From: Patescibacteria group bacterium UBA926
GTDB lineage: Bacteria; Patescibacteriota; Doudnabacteria; UBA920
Direction: 5' to 3'
NCBI GenBank assembly: GCA_002293685.1
Contig: DBDS01000007.1
Span: 40,140-104,139, forward strand
DNA length: 64,000 nt
Shown: one piece after another, positions 1,143 through 63,522 of the stretch
Layout: each line of letters opens with the position of its first letter
How positions within the stretch are numbered: the stretch's first letter is position 1
Position numbers and translations under genes: made by a program
The notes under the pieces: generated by a model
Seen by the model: the letters and a program-made list of their open reading frames with translations, nothing else
Databases searched by the model: none
Told to the model about the DNA's origin: nothing

Positions 1143-1254
1143 TTGTCATCCTAAGTCCTGAGTCAATTAAAACCTACCTTGTCATTCTGAGTCCGCCAAA
1201 GGCGGACGAAGAATCCCATGAGATCCTTCAGTCACTCCGTTCCTTCAGGATGAC
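1143..1254. repeat. Family-A palindromic repeat, composite copy (about 1.5 units).
   Basis: TTGTCATCCTAAGTCCTGAGTC, then GTCATTCTGAGTCCGCCAAAGGCGGACGAAGAATCCCATGAGATCCTTC...CCTTCAGGATGACG. Near-identical to the copy at 48072-48150. Confidence 0.7.
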
Positions 1255-1268
1255 GTAAACATAAATTT

Positions 1269-1652
1269 ATGGACACAGACTATAAAGGAATTGCCATTAT
1301 TGCCCTGATAATTGTAGCTTTATTTGGTGCGGGGTTATTCTATGTGATTTCAGAAGGTAACAACCGCAGAGTCGCTCTAGAGCTAACTAGGCAGTATTTA
1401 AACACCAATAACCCTGAAGAACAGATGGCTTTGGAAACCGAGATTCGTGAGCGAATTGAGAAACCCCCAATTGCGATGACAAGCAGAGCTAGTTTAGATT
1501 CATTTGAGGTATTAATTGCTAATGCTAGAGCTTGTGAGGATTATGCAGAAAGGGTCCAGTCTGATGGCTCTGAGGTTGATACAGATGAGGTCTGGCGCTA
1601 CTGCATGGATAATCCTGAAGTCCTCACTCTGCCAATAAATCTTATAAGGTAA
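1269..1652 (+). CDS. Small hypothetical protein with an N-terminal transmembrane helix.
   Basis: 127 aa ORF with N-terminal hydrophobic segment IAIIALIIVALFGAGLFYVI. A hairpin terminator follows. Confidence 0.4.
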   Translation: MDTDYKGIAIIALIIVALFGAGLFYVISEGNNRRVALELTRQYLNTNNPEEQMALETEIRERIEKPPIAMTSRASLDSFEVLIANARACEDYAERVQSDGSEVDTDEVWRYCMDNPEVLTLPINLIR

Positions 1653-1663
1653 ATTGAAAAAAG

Positions 1664-1706
1664 AATCCCCGGAAGCCTGAAAGGCTATCCGGGGTCTTTT
1701 TATTTT
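1664..1706. terminator. Bidirectional rho-independent terminator between the convergent 127-aa gene and valS.
   Basis: Hairpin CCCCGGAAGCCTGAAAGGCTATCCGGGG followed by TCTTTTTATTTT on the + strand. On the - strand the same hairpin is followed by TTCTTTTTT. Confidence 0.55.
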
Positions 1707-4003
1707 GGCCAGTTGGCGATAATGAGTGTTTTATCTTCCACGAGCTTACCTTCGCGTAACTTCTGCCATAGTACTTCTGTTACGAATGGCATGAACGGAT
1801 GGAGAAGTTTTAAAATGTGTAAGAGAATGTGAAGCAGTATTGCTTGAGTATTAGCTTTTTGATTTTCGTTCTGAATTTGTTCTTTTGTTGCTTCGATATA
1901 GACGTCTGCAAATTCTTTCCATACGAATTCATAAAGTGTTTGCGCCGCGTCATGAATGCGGAAAACATTCAAGCTCTTGGAAACAGATTCAATTGTTTCT
2001 GAAAGCTGGTTTAAGATGAGTTGATCGGCTTTGGTGAGCTTGTCATTCTGAGGCGAAGCCGAAGAATCTAGATCCTTCGCTACACTCAGGATGACAGCCA
2101 CTTCATCTGCAGAGATATTGGTTAGGATATATCTTGTGATATTCCAAAGCTTGTTCCCAAAGTGCTTCATACCTTTGATTTTATCCTCTGCTAAAGCGGT
2201 ATCTGTTCCAGGGGCTGTATTGAATACCAAGGCAAAACGCAATGCGTCGGTGCCGTATTTTTCAATCATGTCGAGCGGGTCGATAATATTGCCAAGGCTT
2301 TTACTCATTTTTTGGTTTTTGGAATCTCGGATTAAGCCGTGCAAATAAACATGTTCGAACGGAATTTGCCCTAAGTGATAACCGCTCATCAATACCATAC
2401 GAGCAACCCAGAAGAATAAGATATCGTATCCAGTTTCCATTACAGTTGTTGGATGGAAGGTTTTTAAATCCGGGGTTTCGTTTGGCCAACCTAAAGTAGA
2501 GAAAGTCCACAGTCCAGAAGAGAACCAAGTGTCCAAAGTGTCTTCGTCCTGAGTCCAGCCTTCGCCTTCAGGCGCTTCAATTCCTACATACATGTTACTG
2601 TCATCCTGAGCATCACTGTCATCCTGAGCGTTAGCGAAGGATCCATTATCAGATTCTTCATTCCGCTTCGCTCCACTCAGAATGACAGGGGTAGTTTTGT
2701 ACCAAACAGGAATACGATGCCCGAACCAAATCTGACGAGAAATACACCAATCGCGCAAGTTATCTATCCAGTGGAAGTAGGTTTTGTTAAAGTGATCTGG
2801 AAAAATTTTTATTTGCCCGCTTGTTACCACTTGCCGCATTAACTCTTTTAACGTGGTTTCTGTGCCTGAATCAATTCCTTCAATTTGAGACTTCTTTAAA
2901 GTAAAAGGTTTATTTACATCTAAGAACCACTGCAGTTTCGGTAATGGCTCGATAATGCCACCGCTTCTTTCGGCTGTGGCAACATTTTGTTTGACCGATT
3001 CTTCGCGCTCCAATAGATTCTCGCTTCGCAACCATTCGACAATGGCTTCACGCGCCACTGTTGTTTTTTGATCAATCACACCTTCTTGCCCAGCGGTCAT
3101 TTTTGCAAACTCGTTAATGACTTGCTTGAAAGGAAGCTTGTGTCGTTCGCCGATTTCAGCATCAACTTGGCTATGAGCTGGAGTGACGCCCAAAGCACCA
3201 GTTCCAAATTCTGGGTCAACGCTTTCTTCACCAATAATTTTGATGTGAAGTTGTTCACCTGCAAAAGTAACATCAAATTCTTGACCGATAAATTGTTTGT
3301 AGCGAGCATCTTCAGGATGAACTGCAACTGCGGTGTCACCAATTTTGGTTTCCGGGCGTGTGGTAGAAATTGAGATAGGGAAGTCGGCGCTATATTTGAA
3401 AGTATAAAGAGTCGCTTCACGCTCTTCGTGAACAATTTCGTCATCAGAGATAACAGTTTGGCCTTTCGGATCCCAGTTGATTACTTTGTGCGCACGGTAA
3501 ATTAAACCGTCGTCGTACATATTCTTAAAAGCTGTGCGAACAGCTAGACTGCGAGGTTCGTCTAAGGTGTATGCTTCGCGGCTCCAATCAACGGAAGCAC
3601 CAAGCGCTTTGATTTGACCAACGATTGTGTCGCGACTTTCTGCTGCAAATGTTTCCACGCGCTTTACGAATTCTTCACGACCTAAATCGGTTTTGCGAAC
3701 ACCTTCTTTGGTTAAGATTTTTTCTACTTTGGATTGGGTCGCGATTGCAGCGTGGTCTGTTCCTGGTAACCATAAAGTCTTGCGTCCTTGCATGCGACGG
3801 AAGCGAGTGAGTATATCTTGAATTGTCACGAACAGCGCGTGGCCAACATGAAGCGTTCCAGTCACGTTTGGGGGCGGCATGATAATAGAGAACGGTTCGC
3901 CGTCACCTAAATTATCTGGGTTAAAATACCCAGAATCTAGCCAGTTTTGGTAAATATCCGCTTCGTATTTTGAGGCTTCATAGGCCTTATCTAGTTCAAT
4001 CAT
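1700..4003 (-). CDS. valS: Valyl-tRNA synthetase (class I aminoacyl-tRNA synthetase). It carries two in-frame family-A repeat insertions.
   Basis: HIGH motif (PNVTGTLHVGHAL) and KMSKS motif are present. CP1 editing-domain region and anticodon-binding region are present. 767 aa. Inserted peptides AVILSVAKDLDSSASPQNDK and NEESDNGSFANAQDDSDAQDDS are encoded by repeat DNA. Confidence 0.93.
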   Translation of the reverse strand: MIELDKAYEASKYEADIYQNWLDSGYFNPDNLGDGEPFSIIMPPPNVTGTLHVGHALFVTIQDILTRFRRMQGRKTLWLPGTDHAAIATQSKVEKILTKEGVRKTDLGREEFVKRVETFAAESRDTIVGQIKALGASVDWSREAYTLDEPRSLAVRTAFKNMYDDGLIYRAHKVINWDPKGQTVISDDEIVHEEREATLYTFKYSADFPISISTTRPETKIGDTAVAVHPEDARYKQFIGQEFDVTFAGEQLHIKIIGEESVDPEFGTGALGVTPAHSQVDAEIGERHKLPFKQVINEFAKMTAGQEGVIDQKTTVAREAIVEWLRSENLLEREESVKQNVATAERSGGIIEPLPKLQWFLDVNKPFTLKKSQIEGIDSGTETTLKELMRQVVTSGQIKIFPDHFNKTYFHWIDNLRDWCISRQIWFGHRIPVWYKTTPVILSGAKRNEESDNGSFANAQDDSDAQDDSNMYVGIEAPEGEGWTQDEDTLDTWFSSGLWTFSTLGWPNETPDLKTFHPTTVMETGYDILFFWVARMVLMSGYHLGQIPFEHVYLHGLIRDSKNQKMSKSLGNIIDPLDMIEKYGTDALRFALVFNTAPGTDTALAEDKIKGMKHFGNKLWNITRYILTNISADEVAVILSVAKDLDSSASPQNDKLTKADQLILNQLSETIESVSKSLNVFRIHDAAQTLYEFVWKEFADVYIEATKEQIQNENQKANTQAILLHILLHILKLLHPFMPFVTEVLWQKLREGKLVEDKTLIIANWPK
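2041..2096. repeat. Family-A repeat, short copy, inserted in-frame inside valS.
   Basis: TGTCATTCTGAGGCGAAGCCGAAGAATCTAGATCCTTCGCTACACTCAGGATGACA. Translated on the minus strand it gives AVILSVAKDLDSSASPQNDK within ValRS. Confidence 0.7.
2598..2689. repeat. Family-A repeat with a duplicated left terminus, inserted in-frame inside valS.
   Basis: CTGTCATCCTGAGCATCACTGTCATCCTGAGCG...CTCAGAATGACAG. It encodes the acidic, low-complexity ValRS segment NEESDNGSFANAQDDSDAQDDSNMY. Confidence 0.7.
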
Positions 4004-4179: not shown

Positions 4180-4758
4180 CTATGGGCGGAGCACTTTGGT
4201 GACAGCCAAAGAATCGGTTTGCCTTTGTAGGTTCATTATACTGACAGCCTTTGCGTTTGTAAAGCTAGTAGATAGTTTTGAGATTAGTCCTAGCTTTTCT
4301 CCGGGAGGAATTGGAATTTCTCCGTATTTAAGTACAACTCCATAGTGCACCTCTACTGAACGCAAGAAGTTTCTCGATTGCTCAAAGAAATCTTCTGTGG
4401 TGAGTGAAGAGGTCTTTAGCATTAAGAACCTTCCATCCTGATTAGGTTCCAAATAGAGCAGACTCAAGAGACGTCTTCGTTCAAGATCGCTCAGGAGACG
4501 TTTAGTTTTTTCTGAAGTTTGATGTGGTGATTTTTCGATCAGTCTATAAAGTTCATTGAACACATCTTCAGAAAAAACCAGGCCGATTTTTCTTTGTACT
4601 TCAACTAGCTCGCGGGACATGGTTTTTGGGTTGATGTTGAAATACTGAGTATCTTCGTCTACCAGAGCTATGTAGCCGATAGAGGGTTGGGCCGAGGTGA
4701 CACACCAGCTCATCAAAAGCCAGCCTATTAAAACTACTAGTTTCATTCTTGCCTCCAT
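4180..4758 (-). CDS. Hypothetical secreted protein with an N-terminal signal peptide.
   Basis: N-terminus MKLVVLIGWLLMSWCVTSAQP is signal-peptide-like. No recognisable domain. Confidence 0.45.
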   Translation of the reverse strand: MEARMKLVVLIGWLLMSWCVTSAQPSIGYIALVDEDTQYFNINPKTMSRELVEVQRKIGLVFSEDVFNELYRLIEKSPHQTSEKTKRLLSDLERRRLLSLLYLEPNQDGRFLMLKTSSLTTEDFFEQSRNFLRSVEVHYGVVLKYGEIPIPPGEKLGLISKLSTSFTNAKAVSIMNLQRQTDSLAVTKVLRP

Positions 4759-5846: not shown

Positions 5847-6022
5847 AACTTATTTAAAAATGTCATCCCGACGACCACATGTCCTGAGTAAAGTCGAAGG
5901 ACGCGGGCCAGCCGGGATCTGTGTTGGTATTATATCGGGTTTTGAAGCAAAACAAAAACCACTTAATTTCACTATAATAGTGCCCAATGATGGGAAAATG
6001 GCTTTTGTTAGACGTATAAAAA

Positions 6023-7781: not shown

Positions 7782-7905
7782 ATCTGAAATTAATCCATTT
7801 AATTTTTTAACAACCTAATCATTATATTCCTAATTTTTAAGTTTGCCAAGACAGATAGGGTAAAAAGAAAAAGCCGTCCCGAAAATTGGGACGGCGAAAG
7901 TTTTG

Positions 7906-9225
7906 CTAGGCGTTAACCGTGCGATTGAATCGCTTGGTTATATCCATCATTTCCATGCAGACTACGATTCCAACCATGCCGATTAACAGCTGAAGTCCGA
8001 ACGGCGGTTCGAGTCCTGTGTAGCTAATCCACATCGTGGTACCAACTTGCCAGAGTAGAAGATAGGGCGCAAAAACCCACGCTTCAATTAACCAGCCTTT
8101 GAAAACTTGGGCCGATGTTACGACCTTTGCCGCAACAAGTATGACGAGGAAAGTCACAATCTGTGGACCGTTACCGAGAGGTGAGAGTCCTCCATAGACT
8201 ACCGATGGGAAAAGATTGAACCACAACTGCATAGTCATGCCGAGCTTCTCGTACACTGGATACGCGGCAGCGAATGCGGCTGCGTTGTCTGCGCCGAGTG
8301 TCATCGCAATAACCGCCCAGTAAAGTTGATCCGGGGGAATGTCTGTGTGATGAAGCCCAAGGTGCGCGAATGACACAACCGAGAAGAACGCCAGAAAAAT
8401 CACGGCTGTCTCAATGGACCAGTGAATCGTGTGATGCCGAGCTTCTTTTGAAAAGAAGAGGCTAGATATCAAAGTGATCAAGAACACTGAGCCAAGGAAG
8501 ATTGTAATTTGAAATTCTCTTAAGAAGGTTATGGCGATGCTTATGCATAGCGCCAGTACACTTCCGTAAAGAATCTTTAACCAGCTTTTAGGTCGGATGG
8601 TTTTTAGTTCAAGGTAGATGTTTCCAAATTCAGTCCCAAGCCTTTTTAGGGAGATGTAATACAACACCGCTGTGAAAGACATATAGAGCCAGAATTTTGT
8701 AAACGGAAAGAAGTAATTCAGGGTTTGTCCCATCTGACCAAACTTTACAGCAAGGTACGATTGCGGCGGGTCTGCAGCCGTCGTACCAAGAGCTAGCATG
8801 TTCATCGAGAAGATTGCGACCGTGATAAGTATCAACAGCCTACGTTCTTCATCTCGACTTTTCAAAACATGATAGATGGACAGCAAGAGCGGTACTACCG
8901 CCCAGGTTGTTCCAAAGTTTCCTGCGAGTGGGAAGACAAGAAATAAAAGCCAACCAATTTTGGTTGTCTTGGGAACTTCGATCTCGAATAAATTAAGTCC
9001 GGCAATGGCTATCGCCACCAACGGCACCATGATGAATTGCGGGTAGTCCACTAAGAAGACATGCTTCGCAACTTCACGGGTTTCATCATTGTAGATCAAA
9101 AGAAAAATAATCGTAGGGAGAGACAAAAAAAGGAAAATTATTACCTTTTTTTTGAGGTCCCCGACCTTAAGCGACGTGTAAACAATTACGACTAAAATCG
9201 CTAATGCGACAAGAAAAAAGTGCAT
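7906..9225 (-). CDS. Polytopic integral membrane protein of unknown function.
   Basis: 439 aa with at least 10 predicted transmembrane segments. No catalytic motif recognised. Confidence 0.5.
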   Translation of the reverse strand: MHFFLVALAILVVIVYTSLKVGDLKKKVIIFLFLSLPTIIFLLIYNDETREVAKHVFLVDYPQFIMVPLVAIAIAGLNLFEIEVPKTTKIGWLLFLVFPLAGNFGTTWAVVPLLLSIYHVLKSRDEERRLLILITVAIFSMNMLALGTTAADPPQSYLAVKFGQMGQTLNYFFPFTKFWLYMSFTAVLYYISLKRLGTEFGNIYLELKTIRPKSWLKILYGSVLALCISIAITFLREFQITIFLGSVFLITLISSLFFSKEARHHTIHWSIETAVIFLAFFSVVSFAHLGLHHTDIPPDQLYWAVIAMTLGADNAAAFAAAYPVYEKLGMTMQLWFNLFPSVVYGGLSPLGNGPQIVTFLVILVAAKVVTSAQVFKGWLIEAWVFAPYLLLWQVGTTMWISYTGLEPPFGLQLLIGMVGIVVCMEMMDITKRFNRTVNA

Positions 9226-9380
9226 GATCCATAGATCCTCCTAGGTTTTTTTGTTTCGGTTATTTTCACACCGACTCGATATTTTACTACTTCTGGACTG
9301 TTTTGTCGAGGGGGTGGTATTACTAAATTTCTTGGTCGCGAAGGTGAATATGTTATAATTTAGTTAAATAATAAAGAACT

Positions 9381-9575
9381 ATGTGTGCAGTTTGTGGGTT
9401 AACTAGTATTCCAGCTTGTTCAGTTAGTGGTCAATGTGGGTTGAATATTCAACAGGTTGTTGGTGTTGCGGCTATATCGGGTGGCGCGGCTTTAACTTTG
9501 CTTCGTCATTGGTTAGCGGTCCGTGTGAAATCTGCGACGACAAAAATAAGTAAACTATTTAAACATGGAAGTTAA
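9381..9575 (+). CDS. Small Cys-rich peptide (64 aa), hypothetical. See finding.
   Basis: MCAVCGLTSIPACSVSGQCG followed by a hydrophobic stretch. An extended -10 (TGTTATAAT) lies about 30 bp upstream. Confidence 0.25.
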   Translation: MCAVCGLTSIPACSVSGQCGLNIQQVVGVAAISGGAALTLLRHWLAVRVKSATTKISKLFKHGS

Positions 9576-9915
9576 AAGATACGATATTTATTTAGTGGGA
9601 TTAGTAGTCTTGCACTTTGTGGTTTTTTTCCGAATTCTTTCTATGATAACAGTCGGTAGTGCTTTGCAAATGATGAGTATTGAAAATGGATTTGGATATA
9701 TGATGATAGCCATTTTTGTAGCCATTTTTTCTTTAAGTTTTTTCAATCTATCGCACATGTTTAGGATTACAACAAAGCCGAGCGGGGAGAATAGCTCGGC
9801 AGAAGTTTCGCAGTTACACGGAACCGCTCAAAGATTTTTGATCATCCTGTTAATCTACTTATTCCTTGAATGTATTCAAGCGCTTCATTACATGGGCGAA
9901 ATAGGTTCTGTGTAA
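9565..9915 (+). CDS. Hypothetical small membrane protein.
   Basis: 116 aa with three predicted transmembrane helices. Confidence 0.35.
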   Translation: MEVKRYDIYLVGLVVLHFVVFFRILSMITVGSALQMMSIENGFGYMMIAIFVAIFSLSFFNLSHMFRITTKPSGENSSAEVSQLHGTAQRFLIILLIYLFLECIQALHYMGEIGSV

Positions 9916-10112
9916 ATACCAAAACACCGCCATGAGGCGGTGTTTTGGTATTGGTAGAGGTCGTCTGAACGGCTGGAAAACTTATTTGGCTTTAATAAGA
10001 GAGCTGTATTTATGCCTGACGCGGATGGGTCCCTTGCAGGGTTGAAAACCCAATTAATCTTAAATCGGCAGATTCATGATATAATTTTATCGTAATATTA
10101 AAATTACCAAAT

Positions 10113-10820
10113 ATGCAGAAGGTGGCTTACGGAATCCTATTCTTCATAATAGGGTTGATTGGTTCGATTATACTCTTGCTAATAGTTAGCAACAAGTTGG
10201 ATACAAATTTGGGAGATATTCCATTTTTCATACTATCCTTTGTAGGTGCAATTCTGTTCTCAATTGTTGGCATAAAAAATACAGGTTATAAAGAAAGTAT
10301 TCATGCTAACATGGCATTTACAATCTTGGGAATATTATTAGGAATAATAGTCTCCTCCTTAATTGCGAACTTAATCTATGGTTCGTTTCCAAGTGTTATT
10401 GATAAGTATCCGTATTTTTATTTTGGTTTACTATTGCTGATTTGGGTGTTAGGTGCTTTGCTTGGCCATTGGGTGGGCAATCAGTATAATGCTATAAAAT
10501 TGGAACAAGGTGTTCAAAAGCAAAGTAAATTATCTAAATTCTTTTCTTATTATGTTTTTTCAGCAAAAAGGGTTGAAGGTAACTACATAATCTACGAAGT
10601 TGATACTAAACGCTATCGTCAATTCACTATTATGCTTTTAATAGTTGGGGTGACACAATATTTTGCGGGGATTAAGTATGTTTGGTTCACTGTATTGGTT
10701 ATAATTATTGATTTAAGTATCGGAAGTGTTACAAAACTGAACGATAGCTTAAGGGCTATTTCCAGGAAGAAAATAGTCAAAGAGAATGGCATTATAGAAT
10801 ACTGGTACGAAGTCGAGTAA
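10113..10820 (+). CDS. Hypothetical membrane protein.
   Basis: 235 aa with four N-terminal transmembrane helices. Two more transmembrane helices lie in the C-terminal half. Confidence 0.45.
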   Translation: MQKVAYGILFFIIGLIGSIILLLIVSNKLDTNLGDIPFFILSFVGAILFSIVGIKNTGYKESIHANMAFTILGILLGIIVSSLIANLIYGSFPSVIDKYPYFYFGLLLLIWVLGALLGHWVGNQYNAIKLEQGVQKQSKLSKFFSYYVFSAKRVEGNYIIYEVDTKRYRQFTIMLLIVGVTQYFAGIKYVWFTVLVIIIDLSIGSVTKLNDSLRAISRKKIVKENGIIEYWYEVE

Positions 10821-10942
10821 AGTAATCAAGTCAGAAAAGTTTTCATTCTCTTTTGGTCTACTCGAAATTGCCGTTTTGGAAAACTAATCCTTGACCAATA
10901 AAACCAAACTAAAAACCCCATTCTGGGGAATGAGGTTGTTAG

Positions 10943-10961
10943 TGGTAGCGCTACGGGGAAT
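10943..10961 (-). repeat. 19 bp direct repeat of the tRNA-Glu 3' end. Candidate att site remnant and left boundary of the island.
   Basis: TGGTAGCGCTACGGGGAAT is identical to 31811-31829, the 3'-terminal 19 nt of the tRNA on the minus strand. The flanks diverge immediately afterwards. Confidence 0.55.
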
Positions 10962-11289
10962 TCCGCCTCACCGCGCTGCTGCGCGGCTCGTTGTTCGGGG
11001 TTGCGAGAAACTGCTCCCAGCAGTTTCTCGATCGCTCGGTTTCAGTTTTCTCTGCTAGATACAACTTCACCTCGCTTCAACCCGTTCGATTCCTCTATAC
11101 CAATACCATAATAAAAACCCGAAGCAAGTTCGAGTTTTTATTATGGTAGTGATACCGCGTCTAGAACTGCCCAGATGGGGGAATTACAAGGGGTTTCAAG
11201 CATTCCCAGTATGGACGCTGCGACGCATCCGAGTCTGCCGTATAAATGCTACAAATGAGACATTATAAAAGCTATATAAGACTGTCTCA

Positions 11290-48019: not shown

Positions 48020-48071
48020 TAAAAAAAGCGGCGAACGAATAATATCGTTCGACCGCTTCTTTTTTATGCGT

Positions 48072-48150: not shown

Positions 48151-48156
48151 TCAATT

Positions 48157-52342: not shown

Positions 52343-52360
52343 AATAAGGCTTGTGCCAGA

Positions 52361-52588: not shown

Positions 52589-52703
52589 AGATTTTGTGTC
52601 GGGAAGTTAAAAATTAAGCTTAGTCATTATAGTAATTTGAGGCAGTTGTGTCAATTAAACCTGGAAGGTATAATTGAAAGCGAAAACTAAGGAGGGAAAA
52701 TTG

Positions 52704-53024: not shown

Positions 53025-54891
53025 TGGCCTCAGCTTTTGCTTCACCAACGAGCTTGGTGAGTTCTTCTATCGGTGCGTGTTTGATTTGATCAACCGTACC
53101 GATTTTTTGTTTCAGTAATTTTTTAGTTTTTGGTCCGATTCCTGGAATCGAGTCGAGTGCAGATTTTGTAGCCTGTTTGCTTCGCAAAGATTTATGGAAT
53201 GTGATGCCAAATCTATGGGCTTCGTCGCGAAGTCTTTGTAATAGTTGAAGAACTGGATTGTCGTGGGACAATACTATCGGATCTTTTTGGTTGGGTAAAA
53301 AGATTTCTTCGATTCGCTTGGCAAGTCCAATCACAGGGATTTTGAGTTTAGCTTCTTTTAATGCTTCTACAGCCATTTTGAGCTGACCTTTACCACCGTC
53401 TATAACTAGCAAGTCTGGAATAGGCCACGCGTCTTTGGGGTCGGTAGGATTTACGCGAGTAAGTCGTCGCCCCAGCATCTGTTTCATCATGGCGAAATCG
53501 TCTGGAGTTTGTTTACCTGTGATTTTAAATTTGCGATACTCAGATTTTGCAGCAACACCATCTTTGGCGACGACCATACTTCCAACCGGATTGGTTCCTT
53601 GCGTGTTGCTTATGTCGTAGCCTTCAATCCGTCTTGGGGTAGTTGGCAATTTGAGTAATTTTTTTAACTCAGCCAAAGTTTCTTGAATCAAATCTGAATT
53701 ACTAGCTTGACTGCGTTGCCATTTCATCAGATGTTCCTTTGCATTTGTTTCACCCATGGCAATGAGTTTTAGTTTTTGACCACGAGTAGGGGAGCTAATC
53801 GCGATTTTAGTTTTGGTACGTGTTGCTAGAAGTGTAGTGAGTAATGGTTTGTTTGGTAGTTCGATTTGGGTGAAAATTTCCTTTGGTAAATCGGTCGCTT
53901 CGGCGTAATACATCTCTGAAAAAGCTTGAAGCACAGTTGCTCCGCGTTCTTCTTCTGGAATCGCCAACAAATTTTGATACAAGAAATTCTCTTTGTCCAT
54001 TAATTTGCCTTCGCGGACCTTGAAAAGGTTTACTCCAGCTGTGAGGCTGTCGCAGTAAATTGAAATAAAGTCCCATGACACTTTTTTGGTTAGAACCGTG
54101 AGTTGCTTTTCTTGCAGAACGGCAATGGCTTTGAATTCATCTCTAAGACGCGCCGCTTTCTCGAACTGTTTTCGTCTCGCCGCGACTTTCATCTCGGCTT
54201 GAATTTGTTTAACTATTGGTGCGGTTTGGCCAGAAAGGAACAAAGAAATTTTTTGAATGTGCAAATCATATTCTTCAGGAGACATTAAGCCGATGCAAAC
54301 TCCTGGACAACGATGGAGGAAATAATAGAAGCACGGGCGCTTGCCGACTTCTTTGTTGGCGCAAAAATGAAAGACGCGCCTAACTAAGTCTAAAGTTTGC
54401 CCAATTTTTTTGGTTGATGAGTACGGTCCGAAGAATTTATCCCGGGTTTTTTCCTCCCTTCGGGATGAAGTCAAGGAATCTAAGTTTTCCCCTCCTCGCT
54501 TGCGAGGAGGGGTGGCCCGTAGGGCCGGGGTGGTGTCTTCAACTTTACGAACATAAGTAATTTGCGGAATCTCAGTAGAATAATCGATTTTAATAAACGC
54601 GTAATTTTTATCATCACGCAACATGATGTTGTACGGAGGGAGATGCTCTTTAATCAGAGTATTTTCTAAGAATAAACTTTCGAGTTCGGAGTTCACTACT
54701 ATATAATCGAAATCGGTTGCTTCAGCCATAAGGAAGGGGAGTTGAGCACGGGTGTCTGTGCCAGAAAAATATTGTGCCAATCGACTACGCAAAACTTTTG
54801 CTTTTCCCACATACAAAACAGTTCCAGTTTTATCTAGGAACTTGTAAACGCCCGGCTTGCGGGGAACGTCCTTGACTTTGTTTTTCAGCAT
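53005..54891 (-). CDS. uvrC: Excinuclease ABC subunit C. It carries an in-frame family-B repeat insertion.
   Basis: GIY-YIG (GVYKFLDKTGTVLYVGKAKVLRSRL). UvrBC domain. RNaseH-like and HhH C-terminus. The inserted peptide TTPALRATPPRKRGGENL is encoded by repeat B. Confidence 0.9.
   Translation of the reverse strand: MLKNKVKDVPRKPGVYKFLDKTGTVLYVGKAKVLRSRLAQYFSGTDTRAQLPFLMAEATDFDYIVVNSELESLFLENTLIKEHLPPYNIMLRDDKNYAFIKIDYSTEIPQITYVRKVEDTTPALRATPPRKRGGENLDSLTSSRREEKTRDKFFGPYSSTKKIGQTLDLVRRVFHFCANKEVGKRPCFYYFLHRCPGVCIGLMSPEEYDLHIQKISLFLSGQTAPIVKQIQAEMKVAARRKQFEKAARLRDEFKAIAVLQEKQLTVLTKKVSWDFISIYCDSLTAGVNLFKVREGKLMDKENFLYQNLLAIPEEERGATVLQAFSEMYYAEATDLPKEIFTQIELPNKPLLTTLLATRTKTKIAISSPTRGQKLKLIAMGETNAKEHLMKWQRSQASNSDLIQETLAELKKLLKLPTTPRRIEGYDISNTQGTNPVGSMVVAKDGVAAKSEYRKFKITGKQTPDDFAMMKQMLGRRLTRVNPTDPKDAWPIPDLLVIDGGKGQLKMAVEALKEAKLKIPVIGLAKRIEEIFLPNQKDPIVLSHDNPVLQLLQRLRDEAHRFGITFHKSLRSKQATKSALDSIPGIGPKTKKLLKQKIGTVDQIKHAPIEELTKLVGEAKAEAIIKYLK
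54490..54536. repeat. Family-B double-hairpin repeat, inserted in-frame in uvrC.
   Basis: CCCCTCCTCGCTTGCGAGGAGGGGTGGCCCGTAGGGCCGGGGTGGTG. Confidence 0.7.
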
Positions 54892-54935
54892 ACCTATATT
54901 ATATACACTTTAAACTTGATTACGAAGGGGGGATT

Positions 54936-55319
54936 ATGAAGGTCTTTGCAGGGATAGTATGTTTTTGTTTAGGTTTGTTGTTTATCGCTTTGCTGGCGTA
55001 TATATTGCACATCTCATCAGATTATAGAGGTCTGTGGCTCGCTCTAAAAATATTTTATGGTGGAGCGGTAGCAATGATGGCGTATTGCATGTTTAAATTT
55101 TCTCTCAGATTCTTTAAGGATTGGCAATTCGATAGAGAGTTAGATATCCTCGCTAAGAATTACCAAGAATCCGAACCGGGGCAATTGGAGTTAGATTGTT
55201 CTTCTCAACGTTTAGCGAACGAGTTTTGGCGATTATATAAAGACACTCAGAATGGTCGAATGTATGATCGGCAAAAATATGATTCTGAAAATAAAAAGCT
55301 ACGTTTCAAAAAGCGGTAA
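54936..55319 (+). CDS. Hypothetical membrane protein.
   Basis: 127 aa. Two transmembrane helices and a charged C-terminus. Confidence 0.4.
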   Translation: MKVFAGIVCFCLGLLFIALLAYILHISSDYRGLWLALKIFYGGAVAMMAYCMFKFSLRFFKDWQFDRELDILAKNYQESEPGQLELDCSSQRLANEFWRLYKDTQNGRMYDRQKYDSENKKLRFKKR

Positions 55320-55443
55320 CAGCTTTTAACCCTACACTTCATTTTGAGGTGTAGGGTTCTTGTTTTTTTGTGAAATTTCTGCTAGCGTTATTAAAGTTTC
55401 AAGAAAAACTCAAGAAACCAAATTAGAGAAACATAATAACCTT

Positions 55444-58329
55444 ATGCCCAAGAAAACCCCTTTAAAAGCTTCTAAAACTACTGTTAAAAGCAATGAACAC
55501 AAGATTGTGGTTCGTGGTGCGCGCGTGCACAATTTAAAAAATGTTGATATAGATTTGCCACGTCACAAACTGATTGTGATGACCGGATTGTCTGGTAGCG
55601 GTAAATCGTCTTTAGCTTTCGACACTATTTATGCCGAAGGTCAGCGTCGTTACGTTGAGTCTTTGTCGGCTTATGCGCGCCAATTCATCGGCTTAATGGA
55701 TAAGCCAGATGTCGATAAAATTGAAGGATTGTCTCCAGCGATTTCCATCGATCAAAAATCTGCATCACACAATCCAAGATCTACTGTCGGTACTGTTACC
55801 GAAATTTATGACTACATGAGATTGCTTTACGCACGTATCGGAATTCCTCATTGTCCGGTTTGCGGTAAGCGCGTTGAAGGTCAGACTCTTCAAGCCATGG
55901 TAGAAAATATTTTGGCGATGCCCGAGGGAAGTCGAATCATGTTGTTAGCTCCTTTAATCCGCGATCAAAAAGGTGAACACAAGCTCGTGTTCGAGCAACT
56001 TAAAAAATCTGGATTTTCCAGAGTTCGTGTTGATGGTTCAATCATGGATTTAACAGAAGCTGCCCAATTAAATTTAGATAAACAAAAGAAACATTCCATC
56101 GAAGTAATTGTCGACCGCATTGCAGTTAATAAAGAAGACCGTGCAAGACTCTCCGAAAGCTTAGAAAAGACTTTAGATTATGGAGACCAATCTGCTTTAG
56201 TCTTGGTGATGAAAAATGATTCTGTGGAAAAAGAAATTCCGTTATCTCAAAAATTTGCTTGTCCAAGCGGACATGCTATCGCCCTAACCGAACTTGATCC
56301 TCGTGAATTTTCCTTCAACAGTCCTCACGGTGCTTGTCCTGAATGTAAAGGTTTGGGAACAAAACTTACTGTTGAACCAGACCTAGTAATCGCTAACCCA
56401 AAATTGACTTTAGCCGAGGGCGCAATCAGACCATGGAGTAAAACAACTTCACGGGTGTCCTGGTATTCTAGGGTGCTTGAATCAGTTGCAAAAGAATATG
56501 GTTTTTCGGTTAGTGTTCCTGTAAAAGATTTGCCAAAAAAAGCAATCGACATAATTATGAACGGTACCGGCGGTAAAAAAATTATGATGCCAACCGAAGG
56601 CGGACGCTACTATCAAGCCAATTTTGAAGGCGTAATTGCTCAGCTGGAACGACGTTGGCGCGAAACCGAATCCGATTACATGCGCAATGAAATTGAAAAC
56701 TACATGCGGATTCGCAAGTGTGGAACTTGTGGCGGAAAACGGCTTAAGCCAGAAGTTCTTTCGGTCACAGTTGGAGGTGAGGGTATTGTCGAAGTTTCTC
56801 AAAAGTCCATAGAAGACGCTGCGGTGTTTTTTGAAGGGCTTCCAAAACTACTTAATGCCAAAGAAATGGCTATTGCCAATCTAATCTTAAAAGAAATTAC
56901 AGCCCGACTTAAATTCTTGTTGGACGTCGGCTTGTCGTACTTATCTCTGGATAGAGGCGCAGATACTCTTAGCGGTGGAGAAGCACAACGTATTCGTTTG
57001 GCAACCCAGATTGGTTCAGGCTTAACTGGTGTCCTCTATATATTGGATGAACCTTCGATTGGTTTGCATCAACGCGACAACACTCGCTTGCTCACTACTT
57101 TAAAAAATTTGCGTGATCTTGGTAATACCGTGATTGTGGTTGAACATGATGAAGAAACAATCCGTGAAGCGGATTACGTTGTCGACATTGGACCAGGAGC
57201 AGGAAAACATGGTGGTGAAATCGTCGCCGAAGGACTTCCCGCCGACATCGAAAAGAATAAAGTTTCAATTACCGGACAGTACTTAAGCGGTAAAGAAGAA
57301 ATTTCAATTCCAAAACGCCGCCGTCCAGGTAATGGTAAGAAATTACAAATCATTGGTGCGACCGAGAATAATTTAAAAGATGTAAGTGTCGATATCCCGC
57401 TAGGAAAATTTGTCTGCATCACTGGTGTTTCTGGAAGCGGAAAATCAACTTTATTGAATGACATTTTGGCGAAAGCTTTATCTAAGTATTTTTGGAATAG
57501 CAAAGACGAACCAGGTGAGCACAAGAAATTATTAGGAATTGATCATATCGACAAAGTAATCAACATTGACCAATCACCAATCGGTCGAACACCGCGCTCG
57601 AATCCTGCAACATACACAGGTATTTTCACTTACATCCGTGATTTATTCGCCGAAACTCGCGAAGCAAAAATGAAAGGCTATAAAGCCGGTCGTTTCAGCT
57701 TCAATGTTAAGGGCGGTCGTTGTGAAAAGTGTCAGGGTGACGGTGTGATAAAGGTAGAAATGAATTTCTTGCCTGATGTATATATCACTTGCGAAGAATG
57801 TAATGGCAAGCGCTACAACCGCGAAGCTTTGGAAATTCACTACAATGGAAAAACTATTTCTGATGTTTTGCAAATGACAGTGGATGAAGCAAAGCAATTT
57901 TACGCAAACGTTCCTCCAGTTAAGCGCAAACTGGATACTCTATCCGAAGTTGGACTAGGTTACATGCACCTTGGACAGAACGCAACCACATTGAGCGGTG
58001 GGGAAGCGCAGCGTATTAAACTTGCGACAGAGCTTTCTCGTGCGCAAACTGGCCGCACACTATATATCTTAGACGAACCAACCACAGGTCTTCACTTTGC
58101 AGACGTGAAGCGCCTAATTTATGTTCTCAATCAATTGGTTGAAAAAGGCAATACTGTAATCGTGATTGAACACAACTTAGATATGATTAAGACCGCCGAT
58201 TGGATAGTTGATCTTGGCCCGGAAGGTGGGGACAAAGGTGGAATTATAGTAGCAGCAGGAACGCCCGAAGATGTAGCTAAGGTGAAGAAAAGTTATACTG
58301 GTCAGTATTTGAAGAAAATGTTGAAATAG
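55444..58329 (+). CDS. uvrA: Excinuclease ABC subunit A.
   Basis: Two ABC ATPase modules ([18 protein letters not shown]). Zinc fingers (CPVCGKR, C..C..C). LSGGEAQR signatures. Confidence 0.92.
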
Positions 58330-58550
58330 AATTATAAGCCCTCGCTTCGCGAGGGCTTTGTGTAAGCTAATCCTTACGGGTTTGTATGTTCGGTCTCTTG
58401 AGCTACGCCCGCCTAAATCTCCAATGAGATTTAGGCGGGCTGGGCTGCAAAGGCCCTCACTTAACAAACCCGTAAGGAGATCAAGAGAGAGTGTATAGTT
58501 GTGGTCGCAGCAAGCGCTCCACCTGTCAAAAAGGATAGGGTGGTAATAAA

Positions 58551-58588
58551 AAAATCCCACCTCGCTAGATGCGAAGTGGGTGTTTTGT
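58551..58588 (-). terminator. Rho-independent terminator for the minus-strand gene at 58657-58839.
   Basis: Minus-strand hairpin CCCACTTCGCATCTAGCGAGGTGGG followed by ATTTTTTT. Confidence 0.55.
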
Positions 58589-58656
58589 TAAATGTCATCA
58601 AGGACATGCGGGTCTAATAGGAGACCAAGGGCGAGAGCAATGGGAACTCCGCAAGC

Positions 58657-58839
58657 TCAGTCGTTTTGAATTTCTTTTTCCTTTTGTTGAGCAGCTGTGA
58701 GGTGCTCGTCGGGAATCGTTTGTGCGATTTCCGTAACAATCTCATTTGTTACACTCTGACTCAGTTTTTGGTCCGGAGTCACTTTCAAAATTTCCTTAAC
58801 AGCTTCTTGTTTTAAAAGAGCTGTTTTTTGATTTGACAT
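58657..58839 (-). CDS. Small hypothetical protein (60 aa).
   Basis: Charged helical peptide. Terminator downstream. Confidence 0.4.
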   Translation of the reverse strand: MSNQKTALLKQEAVKEILKVTPDQKLSQSVTNEIVTEIAQTIPDEHLTAAQQKEKEIQND

Positions 58840-58861
58840 GATGTTTCCTCCTGAGTGAAAT

Positions 58862-59230
58862 CTATTTTCGGTAGTTCAAGTATATCAAAGAAACTATTTT
58901 TGACAAGTTGATTCCCATTAGTGCCACAAGTAGCCAGTAGTCTAGTTGGTGAGAAATAAATACTTGGTAAAGAACTCCAAGCGATAAGATAACAGAACCG
59001 GCAATCATGGCGGCGCGGTTTGCAATCATTCGGTGATGAGCTTCGCGTTCATCTTCTTTAGGACCTTCACCAACTAACGACATCGCCACGACATAAATAG
59101 CTAAAGCAACACCTATGCTTACCATAGCAGGCATCTTCATAGCTTCAGTCGATTGTGTTTGAGAAATAAGGTAGCCTGTTACAATCGCAAGGAATAGTAA
59201 AAGGGATAGGTAATATAAAATTAGCTTCAT
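58862..59230 (-). CDS. Hypothetical membrane protein (four transmembrane helices).
   Basis: 122 aa. Lies immediately downstream of the XRE regulator gene. Confidence 0.45.
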   Translation of the reverse strand: MKLILYYLSLLLFLAIVTGYLISQTQSTEAMKMPAMVSIGVALAIYVVAMSLVGEGPKEDEREAHHRMIANRAAMIAGSVILSLGVLYQVFISHQLDYWLLVALMGINLSKIVSLIYLNYRK

Positions 59231-59247
59231 AAATTTAGTTTAGCAGA

Positions 59248-59457
59248 TTACTGACGTTTAAAAATATGCTCAATCGGTTTTCCAAAATGTTCCGCAATTT
59301 GCATTGCTAATAGAAGTGAAGGGGCATAGTTGCCTTTTTCAATTGCAATTACTGTTTGTCTGGATACGCCTAACTCAGACGCCAAGTCTTCCTGAGTTTG
59401 ATTACGTTCCTGTCTTAATTTTTTTATGTTGTTTTGTAGCATAAATTTCATTGTCAT
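59248..59457 (-). CDS. XRE-family helix-turn-helix transcriptional regulator.
   Basis: LRQERNQTQEDLASELGVSRQTVIAIEKG HTH_3 signature. 69 aa. Confidence 0.8.
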   Translation of the reverse strand: MTMKFMLQNNIKKLRQERNQTQEDLASELGVSRQTVIAIEKGNYAPSLLLAMQIAEHFGKPIEHIFKRQ

Positions 59458-59534
59458 CCTGAATCATTTTTGTCATCCTGAGCGAAGCGAAGGATCTCAT
59501 AAGGATTCTTCGTCCCGCCGTGGGCGGAACTCAG
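59452..59534. repeat. Family-A palindromic repeat with a duplicated left terminus.
   Basis: TTGTCATCCTGAATCATTTTTGTCATCCTGAGCGAAGCGAAGGATCTCATAAGGATTCTTCGTCCCGCC...CTCAGAATGACACC. Confidence 0.7.
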
Positions 59535-59554
59535 AATGACACCAGTTTGATAAA

Positions 59555-60607
59555 TTAACCGAAAGTAAATGTGAATACTTGGACTCCGCTGTCTGGGAAT
59601 TCAATTTCCATAGTTCGGTTTTGACCAGTGCTAGATTCGAACAGGGGATATAAATCGGAGTTGGTAATTGTCACGCCTTTTTGCAATTGACCATCAACGT
59701 AAATCTTTAAAGTCACCGGCTTTTCACTTTGAGCCACCATGAAAACCTTTGCTGCGTTAAAGTTAAGCCTAATTCTTCCAAAACCAGAGGTGTGGACTGC
59801 AGCTTCTGGTTCAATTTTCCAGCGGCCTTCAAGTGCGAAACGGTTGCGTTGCAAAGTACGAGGGAAAGCGTAAATCTGTTCTTCGCTAGATGGCTTTTCT
59901 AAACCACCAAAGTTTTTTAATCGAGCCAAGCCCAGATAAATTTCTGGAGTCTGAGACTGATTTTCTTCAGGCATCGGAGGCATTTGAAATTCACCTTCGA
60001 GTCCAAGTAAAGTTCTAATCGCTAATTCGGTTTTTTCGTATTCTCCCTCACCAAAGTGTGTATAAACAATTTCTCCGTTTTTATCGATTAAGTAGTGAGC
60101 AGGCCAAAACTGATTTTCAAAAGCTTGCCACGTGCGGTACTGATTGTCTTGAGCAACAGGGTAGGTAATATTATATCTTTTGATGGCAGTTTCTACATTA
60201 TTAGCAACACGTTCGAAAGCAAACTCTGGTGTGTGAATTCCTATAATCACAAACCCTTGGTCTTTATAAGTTTCATACCACTTTGTCACGTAAGGGAGAG
60301 TCCGAATACAGTTGATACATGAGTAGGTCCAGAAATCTACTAAGACAACTCGACCCTGGAGCTCGGCTAAAGTTAGAGGGTCACTGTTGAACCACTTGTT
60401 AAGTCCAACTAACTCTGGAGCTGGTCCGTAGTTTGAAAAATTTGGTTTAACTGGCTCGTCAGGGTTATCGGTTTGAGTTTGAGTTTCCTGAGTTCCAAAA
60501 GTGAGATTCAAAAATCCACCCTCTGGATTTTGAGATTGTAAAAATAATCCTGCTCCGGTGAGCATGGCAATTAAAATCAAAATGTAAGGAAGGATTTTTT
60601 TGAACAT
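59555..60607 (-). CDS. Secreted thioredoxin-like protein (DipZ C-terminal-type) with an extra C-terminal domain.
   Basis: Signal or transmembrane anchor. CxxC in VLVDFWTYSCINCIRTLP. C-terminal domain of about 150 aa. Confidence 0.65.
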   Translation of the reverse strand: MFKKILPYILILIAMLTGAGLFLQSQNPEGGFLNLTFGTQETQTQTDNPDEPVKPNFSNYGPAPELVGLNKWFNSDPLTLAELQGRVVLVDFWTYSCINCIRTLPYVTKWYETYKDQGFVIIGIHTPEFAFERVANNVETAIKRYNITYPVAQDNQYRTWQAFENQFWPAHYLIDKNGEIVYTHFGEGEYEKTELAIRTLLGLEGEFQMPPMPEENQSQTPEIYLGLARLKNFGGLEKPSSEEQIYAFPRTLQRNRFALEGRWKIEPEAAVHTSGFGRIRLNFNAAKVFMVAQSEKPVTLKIYVDGQLQKGVTITNSDLYPLFESSTGQNRTMEIEFPDSGVQVFTFTFG

Positions 60608-60608
60608 A

Positions 60609-61328
60609 TTAGCGATTTGGGTGTAACAGCTTATTTTCTAAAGAACTGTAATCATAAACGTCTAGAATTTTATTTTGTAGTACCAGGTCATAGCCAAAAA
60701 ATATTGCCATCGCCATCAGTATAATTAGCACTCCAAAGACTTGTTGAATACGGGTTGTGTAAGGGGCAATAGCACGAACTTTTTGAGCAGCAAGCTGTCC
60801 GCCGTAAGCGATTACTAACATTGGGATTCCAGCACCGATCGCGTAGGCGACTAATAGCACCGTAGAGGCTGCTAAATCGGACTGTGTCGCGATTAATGTT
60901 AAGATAGACCCTAATACTGGTCCTGCGCAAGGGGTCCAAATAATGCCGAGCGTAATACCTAAAACGAAACCACCGAAGTTTCCATTTCCAGCCGCTCTGC
61001 TCCAGCCTGTCGCTTTAGTAGAGAAACCACTTAAGTAAGTAGTTAATTTTTCGAATGGAGTCGGCCAAATCATTAACAGACCAAATATGCCAAGTGCCAC
61101 AACCGCCACATGTCTTAAAATATTCGGATCAAGATTGAGCGCTGTTGTAATGTAAGAGAGTGTTAGCCCTAGAATGGCAAATGTGAGTGCGAAGCCACCA
61201 GCGATAAATAGAGGACGAGTTTTTGGTCCACCGATTGAGCTGCCTAATAAAATAGGTAACAGCGGAAGAATGCACGGCGCCCCGACTGTGAGAATCCCTG
61301 CCAGAACGGCAAATAATATTTCTAACAT
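60609..61328 (-). CDS. ccdA: Cytochrome c-type biogenesis / thiol-disulfide electron transporter, CcdA (DsbD family).
   Basis: Six transmembrane helices with conserved Cys in TM1 (GAPCILP) and TM4 (TPCAGPVLGSIL). Confidence 0.8.
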   Translation of the reverse strand: MLEILFAVLAGILTVGAPCILPLLPILLGSSIGGPKTRPLFIAGGFALTFAILGLTLSYITTALNLDPNILRHVAVVALGIFGLLMIWPTPFEKLTTYLSGFSTKATGWSRAAGNGNFGGFVLGITLGIIWTPCAGPVLGSILTLIATQSDLAASTVLLVAYAIGAGIPMLVIAYGGQLAAQKVRAIAPYTTRIQQVFGVLIILMAMAIFFGYDLVLQNKILDVYDYSSLENKLLHPNR

Positions 61329-62589: not shown

Positions 62590-62613
62590 GGAAAGCCATG
62601 ATCAGAAATTTTA

Positions 62614-62640
62614 TTAGCACTCGACTTGACAGAGTGCTAA
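62614..62640. promoter_or_regulatory. CIRCE operator (HrcA binding site).
   Basis: TTAGCACTC-GACTTGACA-GAGTGCTAA, a perfect 9-N9-9 inverted repeat, 44 bp upstream of hrcA. Confidence 0.85.
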
Positions 62641-62683
62641 TTTTTTTATACATTAAAAATATATCGTATTAAAGCATTAAACC

Positions 62684-63442
62684 ATGTCTAAAAACGGTGA
62701 AATTACTCCGAGGCAAGCGAAGGTTTTAGCCTGTATTGTAAAACTACATTCCGAAACAGGTAAGCCAATTGCTTCCAAAGAGCTTATAGATAGGGGTTAC
62801 TTTGATGTCAGTGGAGCAACGTTACGTAATGAAATGCAAGCTCTCGAAGAAGCAGGGCTCATTACTCACCCGCACACATCGAGTGGGCGAGTCCCAACCG
62901 ACGAGGGATTTCGATATTTTGTAAATCAGTTAATGGGACACGTAGAACTTTCTTTAAAAGAGCGACAAGCTCTCAAAAAAGAAATCATCAAGCTTCAAGC
63001 GGTAAACGCAGAAATTGGTCGCAGGTTAGCAAAAATGCTGTCCTCACATTCTGCTCAAGCCTCGTTCACTATTTTACCGGAAGAAGTTTCTTCCACAGGA
63101 ATCTCTCACATATTAGAGAACGATCAGTTGCCAGCCGAAGACGCTAAAGAAATCGCCCGCTTCTTTGATAACTTAGATGAATACGCGGACCAGATTATGG
63201 CCGATTACTCGGACAAAGAACCACAAACTTTCATCGGTAAAGAATTAACTTTATCAAAAGGAAGTGACTACTCGATGATTGTCTCCGGTGTGAAATTACC
63301 ATCAGGTAAAAAAGGTGTTATTGGTTTGGTTGGTCCCAAGAGCATGAAGTATCCCAAAAACATTTCGCTGATGGAATATATTTCTAAGTTTCTCGGTAAG
63401 GGAGGCGGAGCCGCAGTACTATTAATTACAATTGTAAGCTGA
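62684..63442 (+). CDS. hrcA: Heat-inducible transcription repressor HrcA (short form).
   Basis: N-terminal wHTH. LRNEMQALEEAGLITHPHTSSGRVPTDEGFRYFV matches the HrcA signature. Confidence 0.75.
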   Translation: MSKNGEITPRQAKVLACIVKLHSETGKPIASKELIDRGYFDVSGATLRNEMQALEEAGLITHPHTSSGRVPTDEGFRYFVNQLMGHVELSLKERQALKKEIIKLQAVNAEIGRRLAKMLSSHSAQASFTILPEEVSSTGISHILENDQLPAEDAKEIARFFDNLDEYADQIMADYSDKEPQTFIGKELTLSKGSDYSMIVSGVKLPSGKKGVIGLVGPKSMKYPKNISLMEYISKFLGKGGGAAVLLITIVS

Positions 63443-63454
63443 CATGCCTAGCAT

Positions 63455-63522
63455 GTCATCCTGAAGGAGCGAAGTGACTGAAGGATCTCAACGAAAGATT
63501 CTTCGCTACGCTCAGAATGACA
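63455..63522. repeat. Family-A palindromic repeat between hrcA and grpE.
   Basis: ATGTCATCCTGAAGGAGCGAAGTGACTGAAGGATCTCAACGAAAGATTCTTCGCTACGCTCAGAATGACAAAG. Confidence 0.7.

Follow-up and report, generated by a model that had tools for sequence, protein, structure and literature searches.

The DNA analysed here is a 64,000-nucleotide stretch (the window) of the genome of Patescibacteria group bacterium UBA926, and the question raised by this locus is what kind of element is represented by the imperfect palindromes dispersed through it, termed family A, and which gene belongs with them. An earlier account made from the letters of the window (the sequence-only reading) had placed them among the repetitive extragenic palindromic (REP) elements or MITEs (miniature transposable elements with inverted repeats). 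Here, ~82 kb of the ~0.85-Mb genome was covered. The source strain belongs to the Patescibacteria, or Candidate Phyla Radiation (CPR), and is related to the Doudnabacteria; many assemblies from JGI, ENA, Logan and NCBI contain it at ~100% identity. The build of the repeats and the gene that they flank indicate that family A is very probably a subtype, with a tandem G.A step in its stem, of the Ssn-related motifs (SRM) that include the NTS of Neisseria, and that it is accompanied by a cognate Ssn-like GIY-YIG nuclease of 97 amino acids (aa). The Ssn/SRM kind of system is already known; the new part is the G.A-stem subtype together with an insertion into an essential gene that resembles those of the Rickettsia palindromic elements (RPE).

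The repeating unit and its hairpin

The repeating unit is each half of the 60-110-bp palindrome and not the palindrome as a whole. It consists of 5'-GTC, a stem-loop ATYCTGAG...CGAAGRAT and a C directly 3' of the stem, and is best explained as a stem ATYCT-GA...GA-AGRAT bordered by an invariant single-stranded 5'-GTC and an invariant 3' C. Both flanks are present in 20 of the 21 full units, the unit at 48074 having A for the 3' C, and GTC and the 3' C are left unpaired in the predicted DNA folds. The tandem G.A/A.G step within the stem (CTGAG/CGAAG) is replaced by G-C/A-T in units 33431 (-) and 41459 (-), and the stem of unit 33367 is the fully paired CCCGGA/TCCGGG. At stem position 6, T or C faces A or G, and the two are Watson-Crick partners in 178 of 181 units from 120 loci in many phyla (Fisher p = 3e-48), so that constraint acts on the hairpin itself. 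The loop varies from 5 nt up to inner hairpins of ~40 nt. Exactly GCGNAGC or GCGNNAGC, a very stable DNA mini-hairpin motif (PMC13037366), caps the hairpin in 74 of 202 units drawn from many phyla, several window units included. The d(GCGNAGC) mini-hairpin was described there as a physico-chemical motif, whereas here it lies inside a longer hairpin that is predicted to be recognised by a protein.

Most units are arranged as inverted doublets of one ATTCT/AGAAT (T-type) and one ATCCT/AGGAT (C-type) unit, and folding of a doublet gives a long hairpin, with z-scores between -2.6 and -5.2. All seven TGAG-type doublets of the window are such hetero-doublets, which suggests that copying in this genome involves entire doublets.

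The units are greatly overrepresented. With at most one mismatch allowed, 17 copies of the terminus TGTCATYCTGAG were counted in the window (0.43 expected), a number that none of 100 shuffles reached, and a structural definition of the unit (GTC, a 5-nt arm, at most 75 nt, the reverse-complement arm and C) yields 20 window matches against 0.79 in 100 Markov shuffles (maximum 5).

A GIY-YIG nuclease gene flanked by the units

When all open reading frames (ORFs) of the 120 cross-phylum loci were clustered, three small GIY-YIG ORFs were found beside or between units; the other clusters were generic families only (ABC ATPases, histidine kinases). In the genome studied here, a 97-aa gene of this kind lies in the 10-kb left extension (locus L144, 6518-6811), ~1.9-2.2 kb left of window position 1, and the window itself holds no Ssn-like ORF (best E = 0.43). 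GIY-YIG is the sole Pfam domain of the 97-aa protein (E = 3.8e-16), and an identical protein is encoded on JALHPQ010000001.1, the 851,616-nt contig of GCA_022842405.1. The gene is embedded in the repeats. A C-type unit at L144 6800-6825 overlaps its ATG, and its downstream side (L144 6360-6517) carries four units and two partial units, the stop codon being followed directly by an inverted T-type unit, two 21-nt partial units and another doublet.

The same association recurs elsewhere. Six homologues have units of this build at their flanks (Saccharibacteria, Gracilibacteria, Cyclobacteriaceae, Thiomicrospira, Berkelbacteria and Acidaminococcaceae), and units stand on both sides of the nuclease gene at L144 as well as at L025, L040, L064, L146, L147 and L148, which brings the association to seven genomes in at least five phyla. 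The homologues from Thiomicrospira, Berkelbacteria and Acidaminococcaceae are ~60% identical and have hetero-doublet arrays of this build on both sides; the 97-aa protein is 53% identical to a Saccharibacteria homologue. Among clusters at 50% identity, 3,016 relatives were recovered at E <= 1e-10. The match to solved UPF0213 proteins is weak, and no curated NCBIfam family matches these small GIY-YIG nucleases. Over-extended ORFs of other homologues (~50-55% identical) translate both G.A-type and canonical SRM units, reading, for instance, VILSAAKNL, LRFAQDD and CHSGLDPES.

Close homologues of the 97-aa nuclease are mostly found on contigs that are very short (0.5-3 kb), which fits a breakage of assemblies at the repeats on either side; the nuclease genes and their repeats are therefore probably under-represented in bins of metagenome-assembled genomes (MAGs).

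Comparison with the Ssn/SRM system

The NTS of Neisseria is CGTCATTCCCGCGMAVGCGGGAATCYRG, and its relatives have been termed SRM (Chenal et al., Nat Commun 2025, PMC11893778). SsnA of N. meningitidis is a 94-aa single-domain GIY-YIG nuclease which binds and cuts NTS hairpins; it acts on single-stranded DNA only, in one orientation, cuts a few nt upstream of the motif and does not bind RNA (PMC11893778). The three nucleotides 5' of the palindrome weigh most for cleavage, binding depends above all on the C that directly follows it, and the identity of the loop is not essential (PMC11893778). A motif was found near 71% of ssn homologues, and on both sides of 42% (PMC11893778).

Family A corresponds to this system in its hairpin unit of 25-60 nt, oriented 5' GTCAT, C directly after the palindrome, variable loop and high copy number, and furthermore in the gene for a nuclease of ~95 aa with one GIY-YIG domain, which has the motif on both sides, and in its spread over many phyla. 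The folds, the excess over shuffles and the covariation at stem position 6 show an inverted repeat of 20-50 nt that is able to fold, as expected of an SRM, and the oriented GTC and C flanks and the motif on both sides of the nuclease gene are likewise present. The differences are found in the stem, which has the tandem G.A step and is often capped by GCGNAGC, in the hetero-doublet organisation, and in location, since 4 of the 21 full units (19%, two doublets) lie in frame in one essential gene, compared to 2% of NTS inside genes in N. meningitidis (PMC11893778). The host also differs, being a Patescibacteria genome of ~0.85 Mb, in which nuclease activity is predicted.

Copies in the window

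In total, the window contains 21 hairpin units (9 inverted doublets and 3 single units) and 3 partial units at 11 loci, which take up ~0.9 kb, or 1.4% of it; no more units were found in the 10 kb to the right. Doublets are given below without a strand.

1144-1156, plus strand: 5' partial unit ('stutter') TGTCATCCTAAGT, 36 nt upstream of D1
1181-1254: doublet D1, made up of a T-type unit at 1181-1215 (+), whose inner hairpin is TCCGCCAAAGGCGGA, and a C-type unit at 1222-1254 (-)
2042-2095: doublet D2, 54 nt or 18 codons inside valS, read as ...VILSVAKDLDSSASPQND...
2600-2611, plus strand: 5' partial unit, 18 nt upstream of D3 and inside valS, the gene strand reading ...DAQDDS...
2618-2686: doublet D3, inside valS, read as ...VILSGAKRNEESDNGSFANAQDD...
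5862-5919, plus strand: old single unit that has an inner hairpin and a CCCGA...CCGGG stem, located 16 nt upstream of where tsaD starts
33367-33431: doublet D4, Watson-Crick stems ATCCCGGA/TCCGGGAT and ATCCTGAC/GTCAGGAT
34393-34491: doublet D5, T-type unit with a 37-nt loop insert, directly after stop codon 34386
34500-34537, plus strand: single divergent unit GTCATTACCGGG...CCGGGAATC
41328-41459: doublet D6, GTCGTCCCGAA...TTCGGGATC and a CCTGAC-type unit with loop insert
48074-48148: doublet D7, in a 3' untranslated region (UTR) between stop codon 48157 and a canonical terminator at 48051-48032
50435-50469, plus strand: single unit GTCATCCCAAG...TTAAGGATC
59453-59464, plus strand: 5' partial unit, 19 nt upstream of D8
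59472-59540: doublet D8, minimal C-type unit GTCATCCTGAGCGAAGCGAAGGATC and a T-type unit, 15 nt after the stop of a redoxin gene
63455-63521: doublet D9, filling the hrcA-grpE spacer

D1 fills the spacer from a cohesin-like gene (stop 1123) to a 127-aa gene (start 1269), D4 lies between a csoR-like gene and a pyridine-nucleotide oxidoreductase gene, and D6 between rpsF (stop 41465) and ssb.

The sequence-only reading was correct in seeing a genuine dispersed family of hairpin-forming palindromes, as every copy that it listed was found at or within a few bases of its position, and the long hairpins that it predicted are borne out by the folds. Several of its details were revised. The copies near 5861 and 50443, regarded as truncated halves, are both complete single units; the copy at 41399 is real but constitutes only the right arm of a doublet starting at 41328; and those at 1143 and 48072, described as nearly identical, are ~87% identical over 76 aligned columns, with 10 differences. 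In place of CTGAG/CGAAG, the copies at 33362 and 41399 have stems that are fully Watson-Crick (CCCGGA/TCCGGG and CCTGAC/GTCAGG). That copies 2041 and 2598 lie in frame inside a 767-aa ORF had not been pointed out.

Many full units are adjoined upstream by a stutter in which only the first ~11 nt of the unit, together with 7-11 unrelated nt, are present once or twice in tandem, at a period of 18-22 nt. It was seen in the window at 2599-2616, 59452-59470 and 1144-1179, at L144 6431-6472 and L007 8369-8388, and at L146, L148 and L064. The stutter recurs in at least five phyla, and of two strains with 98.5% identity one has two copies and the other has one. A copying or cleavage-repair reaction may have left it as a footprint.

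The positions of the doublets raise the possibility that their main role is played in RNA, as 3'-UTR stabilisers, attenuators or terminators, a role which would be compatible with an origin at the DNA level. Seven of the nine doublets lie in short spacers within 30 nt of a preceding stop codon, usually 6-30 nt past it, some of them within operons (hrcA-grpE, rpsF-ssb), and the long hairpins that they form fit such a role. However, among 37 terminator-like sites in 41000-60999 none overlaps an element, no T-run follows the doublets, as one would in an intrinsic terminator, and D7 stands upstream of a separate canonical terminator. With respect to genes, the elements also occur in both orientations, and a coding region contains two of the copies; GCGNAGC, moreover, is a motif of DNA mini-hairpins, and SsnA does not bind RNA. 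The possibility that the copies are fragments of tRNA or other non-coding RNA had been raised with the original description and was checked; at the gathering threshold, no Rfam family covers the elements, and only LOOT RNA and tRNA-Glu were found, both elsewhere in the window. A main role in RNA is thus considered unlikely, but RNA-level effects are possible as a secondary consequence because of the 3'-UTR positions.

Relation to REP elements and their transposases

Another alternative, in line with the sequence-only reading, is that of REP elements or REPINs mobilised by a REP-associated tyrosine transposase (RAYT). The inverted hairpin doublets resemble REPINs and bacterial interspersed mosaic elements (BIMEs), and they are dispersed, mostly just downstream of genes. 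The likeness extends to hairpins with a short conserved 5' flank, to extragenic clustering and to a cognate gene flanked by its own repeats. The enzyme is of another family, since RAYT is a Y1 HUH tyrosine transposase and the units flank, in this genome as in six others, a gene for a GIY-YIG nuclease. Neither a Y1_Tnp nor any other transposase domain was present among the genes called in ~82 kb. Furthermore, the conserved 5' flank is GTC and not GTAG, and REP families are species-specific, in contrast to the family-A unit, which is common to many phyla. Mobilisation by RAYT is very unlikely on these grounds.

In place of the cognate transposase of the IS200/IS605 type suggested by the sequence-only reading, the gene flanked by the units is that of the 97-aa nuclease. 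Of the REP/MITE-type assignment, the inverted-doublet organisation stood, and the GTC flank, the lack of uniform duplications and the absence of a parent insertion sequence (IS) from the stretch covered spoke against the rest; the REP-like reading was right in spirit and wrong in the enzyme family. A CRISPR array, already excluded there by irregular spacing, does not come into question, the copies being inverted doublets at irregular distances of 0.5-27 kb.

In-frame insertions in valS

The Ssn/SRM assignment gains an additional aspect from the two doublets located in valS.

1700-4003, minus strand: valS, valyl-tRNA synthetase (ValRS, 767 aa), host gene of the two in-frame doublets

D2 and D3 keep the reading frame and introduce no stop codon over 54 nt and 69 nt, respectively (87 nt for D3 with its 18-nt stutter), and in frame the two doublets are translated as ...VILSGAKRNEESDNGSFANAQDDSDAQDDS... 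and ...VILSVAKDLDSSASPQND.... In an alignment of 18 ValRS orthologues these segments are found only in the protein of the window and its 98% relative; they are absent from the other 16, including the 87% and 83% relatives, and from L005 and L007. Because of this absence from 16 more distant orthologues, D2 and D3 are, as judged from the alignment, insertions into an essential gene. The net insertion at D3 is 93 nt (31 codons) versus L005 and L007, and that at D2 is 39 nt. Both sites are indel-rich loops, that of D2 being a variable loop of the anticodon-binding domain, and the inserted residues are without counterpart in the ValRS of T. thermophilus (1GAX). An AlphaFold model of ValRS from the 18-sequence alignment had a mean pLDDT of 48.9, too poor to place the inserts, and was discarded. 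The ValRS of this clade is also without a Cys-rich knuckle (CEDC...CEAC), which in T. thermophilus ValRS stands exactly at the D3 loop (window 2603-2695, codons ~436-466).

As read from the sequence, TGA is absent from only two of a unit's three reading frames, and the surviving in-gene copies therefore share the VILS.../...QDD frame. Peptides encoded in frame by units were also seen in a HisA-like protein of Lacinutrix (CHSEQSEE; L023 2206-2230), an NtrC-like regulator of Bacteroidales (VILSEAKNL...DSSANGLRM; L129 2764-2840) and, as long tracts, in a NuoG-like protein of a Helicobacter MAG (L103 945-1073 and 4176-4415). In-gene insertion is therefore not peculiar to this genome. The presence of unit-derived peptides in proteins of several phyla is relevant to annotation and to alignments of protein families.

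The closest parallel to the valS copies is provided by the RPE (see also PMC1779305, PMC10969869), which Ogata and colleagues are said to have described in 2000 as lying in frame in protein-coding genes, essential ones included. In both cases palindromic repeats in frame in genes of a reduced genome add a peptide segment at permissive sites, and D2 and D3 likewise show insertion with the frame kept. The RPE differ in being 100-150 bp long and Rickettsia-specific. Rickettsia is among the SRM-rich genera in the Ssn study (PMC11893778), and a link between RPE and SRM is possible. The valS copies indicate that an aminoacyl-tRNA synthetase of a reduced genome tolerates repeat-encoded inserts of 18-31 residues, as in Rickettsia.

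Related lineages and the question of gain or loss

The proposed comparison with related genomes was carried out, and the intergenic sites proved empty in the sister lineage L005. L005 has ~80-88% nucleotide identity to the window, and its syntenic spacers are far shorter.

D1 spacer: 12 nt in L005, 145 nt in the window
D4 spacer: 12 nt in L005, 114 nt in the window
D5 spacer: 3 nt in L005, 297 nt in the window

At the site of the ssn gene, L005 has a 12-nt spacer and L007 a decayed doublet without the gene. At the D1 site, too, L007 has a doublet that is decayed, and its site orthologous to the partial unit 1144-1156 carries a complete though decayed unit. The single unit 5862-5919 is orthologous in the window lineage, L005 and L007. 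In the closely related L143 (98.5% identical) every doublet is kept, and the sole difference in the repeats is 1 versus 2 copies of a 21-nt partial unit.

ATAAATT (7 nt) occurs on both sides of the D1 insert and once in the empty L005 site, which may recall a MITE, a deletion derivative of an IS moved in trans by a DDE transposase; the length of the elements (54-132 bp) and their inverted termini (TGTCAT...ATGACA) point the same way. Yet target-site duplications are not uniform, as no direct repeats were found at the valS and D4 sites and D1 is the only one of four sites examined to have one, and no parent IS was seen in ~82 kb. Single units moreover stand alone, each half is a conserved hairpin with covariation, and the same unit is found beside GIY-YIG genes in distant phyla, so that a MITE is hardly credible. 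Chance palindromes or an assembly artefact, for which only the shortness of the motif could be adduced, are of negligible probability given the excess over expectation by both counts, the identical sequence in independent JGI, ENA, Logan and NCBI assemblies and the retention of the elements in L143.

Weighing the Ssn/SRM assignment

Several observations weigh against the assignment of family A to the Ssn/SRM system and against its spread by the nuclease. The published SRM pattern, HGTCWYN(0-2)YYVSBRHN(0-5)WNVSBRGN(0-2)RNCYNB, gives no match to any unit in the window, nor to any next to the seven nuclease genes. It does match all instances of the NTS consensus, which served as a sanity check, and unit 33367 fits it once the end positions are relaxed or dropped. 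The pattern is an operational search tool, not a biological definition, and since it gives no match, membership rests on anatomy and gene association. There are also two unit types per doublet but one ssn gene in the 82 kb covered. Gain and loss are ambiguous at some sites, L007 having decayed doublets at the D1 and ssn sites where L005 is empty, and one unit (5862-5919) is older than the split of all three lineages. Finally, Ssn as the copier of its repeats is a hypothesis only, for which the Ssn authors raise only an analogy to IS200/IS605 and RAYT elements (PMC11893778).

Distribution across phyla

A scan with the pattern GTCATYCTGAGN{3,25}CGAAGRATC, using one genome per species, matched at least 120 stretches. 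Among the matches listed, the G.A-stem unit is found in Nitrospirota, Chloroflexota, Acidobacteriota, Bacteroidota, Bacillota, Planctomycetota, Omnitrophota, several Patescibacteria and proteobacteria, cultured isolates included. By these matches, family A is not lineage-specific. In the literature, the text GTCATCCTGAG was found only in unrelated primers and no report of palindromic elements in Patescibacteria was found. Present counts of SRM-bearing genomes are probably too low, because the published motif misses a widespread stem subtype.

Proposed mechanism and implications

By analogy with SsnA and the NTS, when DNA becomes single-stranded, for instance in replication, repair or uptake, the 97-aa nuclease would bind the unit hairpin in one orientation and would nick a few nt 5' of GTC. 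An inverted doublet would then present one cleavable site per strand. Cutting would restrict recombination of single-stranded DNA bearing the motif, and the nuclease-repeat pair would act as a selfish or domesticated element whose hairpins accumulate.

One may speculate further that the nuclease starts the copying of whole doublets to new sites and that the G.A-stem subtype constitutes an overlooked pan-bacterial class, a combined proposal that we regard as possible but doubtful. If the first part were true, operon spacers and valS would have been colonised because this CPR lineage acquired or retained the ssn cassette, and the 18-22-nt stutter would be the footprint of the copying reaction. 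If the second were true, the Ssn/SRM system would extend well beyond what has been reported, and many short peptide inserts in annotated proteins would stem from it.

The assignment would place an Ssn/SRM-type nuclease-hairpin system in the ultra-small genomes of Patescibacteria. The contrast between the window lineage (ssn, many doublets and valS inserts), L007 (decayed doublets and no ssn at the site) and L005 (empty sites) makes the question of whether Ssn spreads its own repeats directly testable. Specificity for the G.A stem would furthermore add an enzyme-site pair to the single-stranded DNA toolbox proposed for Ssn nucleases.

Other features of the window

A candidate second repeat family, GCTGGGCTRCAAAGGC, has one occurrence in the window and is thus no family here. 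The LOOT RNA (Rfam RF03000) lies at 18378-18493 (+), upstream of a 314-aa gene, with 70.2 bits against a gathering threshold of 46.4. Downstream of uvrA, a nested palindrome of 108 nt (58371-58478) has 15-nt perfect outer arms and a 30-nt inner hairpin, GCCTAAATCTC...GAGATTTAGGC, which resembles the loop insert of unit 34393-34454; it has no Rfam match, and a similar 3' motif is found downstream of valS in L005.

Between valS and tsaD, a 192-aa ORF (4180-4758, minus strand) without Pfam match is absent in L005, which has a 46-nt spacer there, and in L007; because of this absence it is classed, from the sequence comparison, as a lineage-specific gene insertion. An island of low GC (0.355-0.39) at ~7900-23500 contains an AAA_13 ATPase, two N6/N4 DNA methyltransferases and a large serine recombinase, and as synteny with the 98.5%-identical L143 stops at its left edge, it looks strain-specific and mobile. 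The uvrC gene (53005-54891) is split into two gene calls in one ENA assembly (L016 7029-8910) by a single indel relative to the window, which is probably an assembly error.

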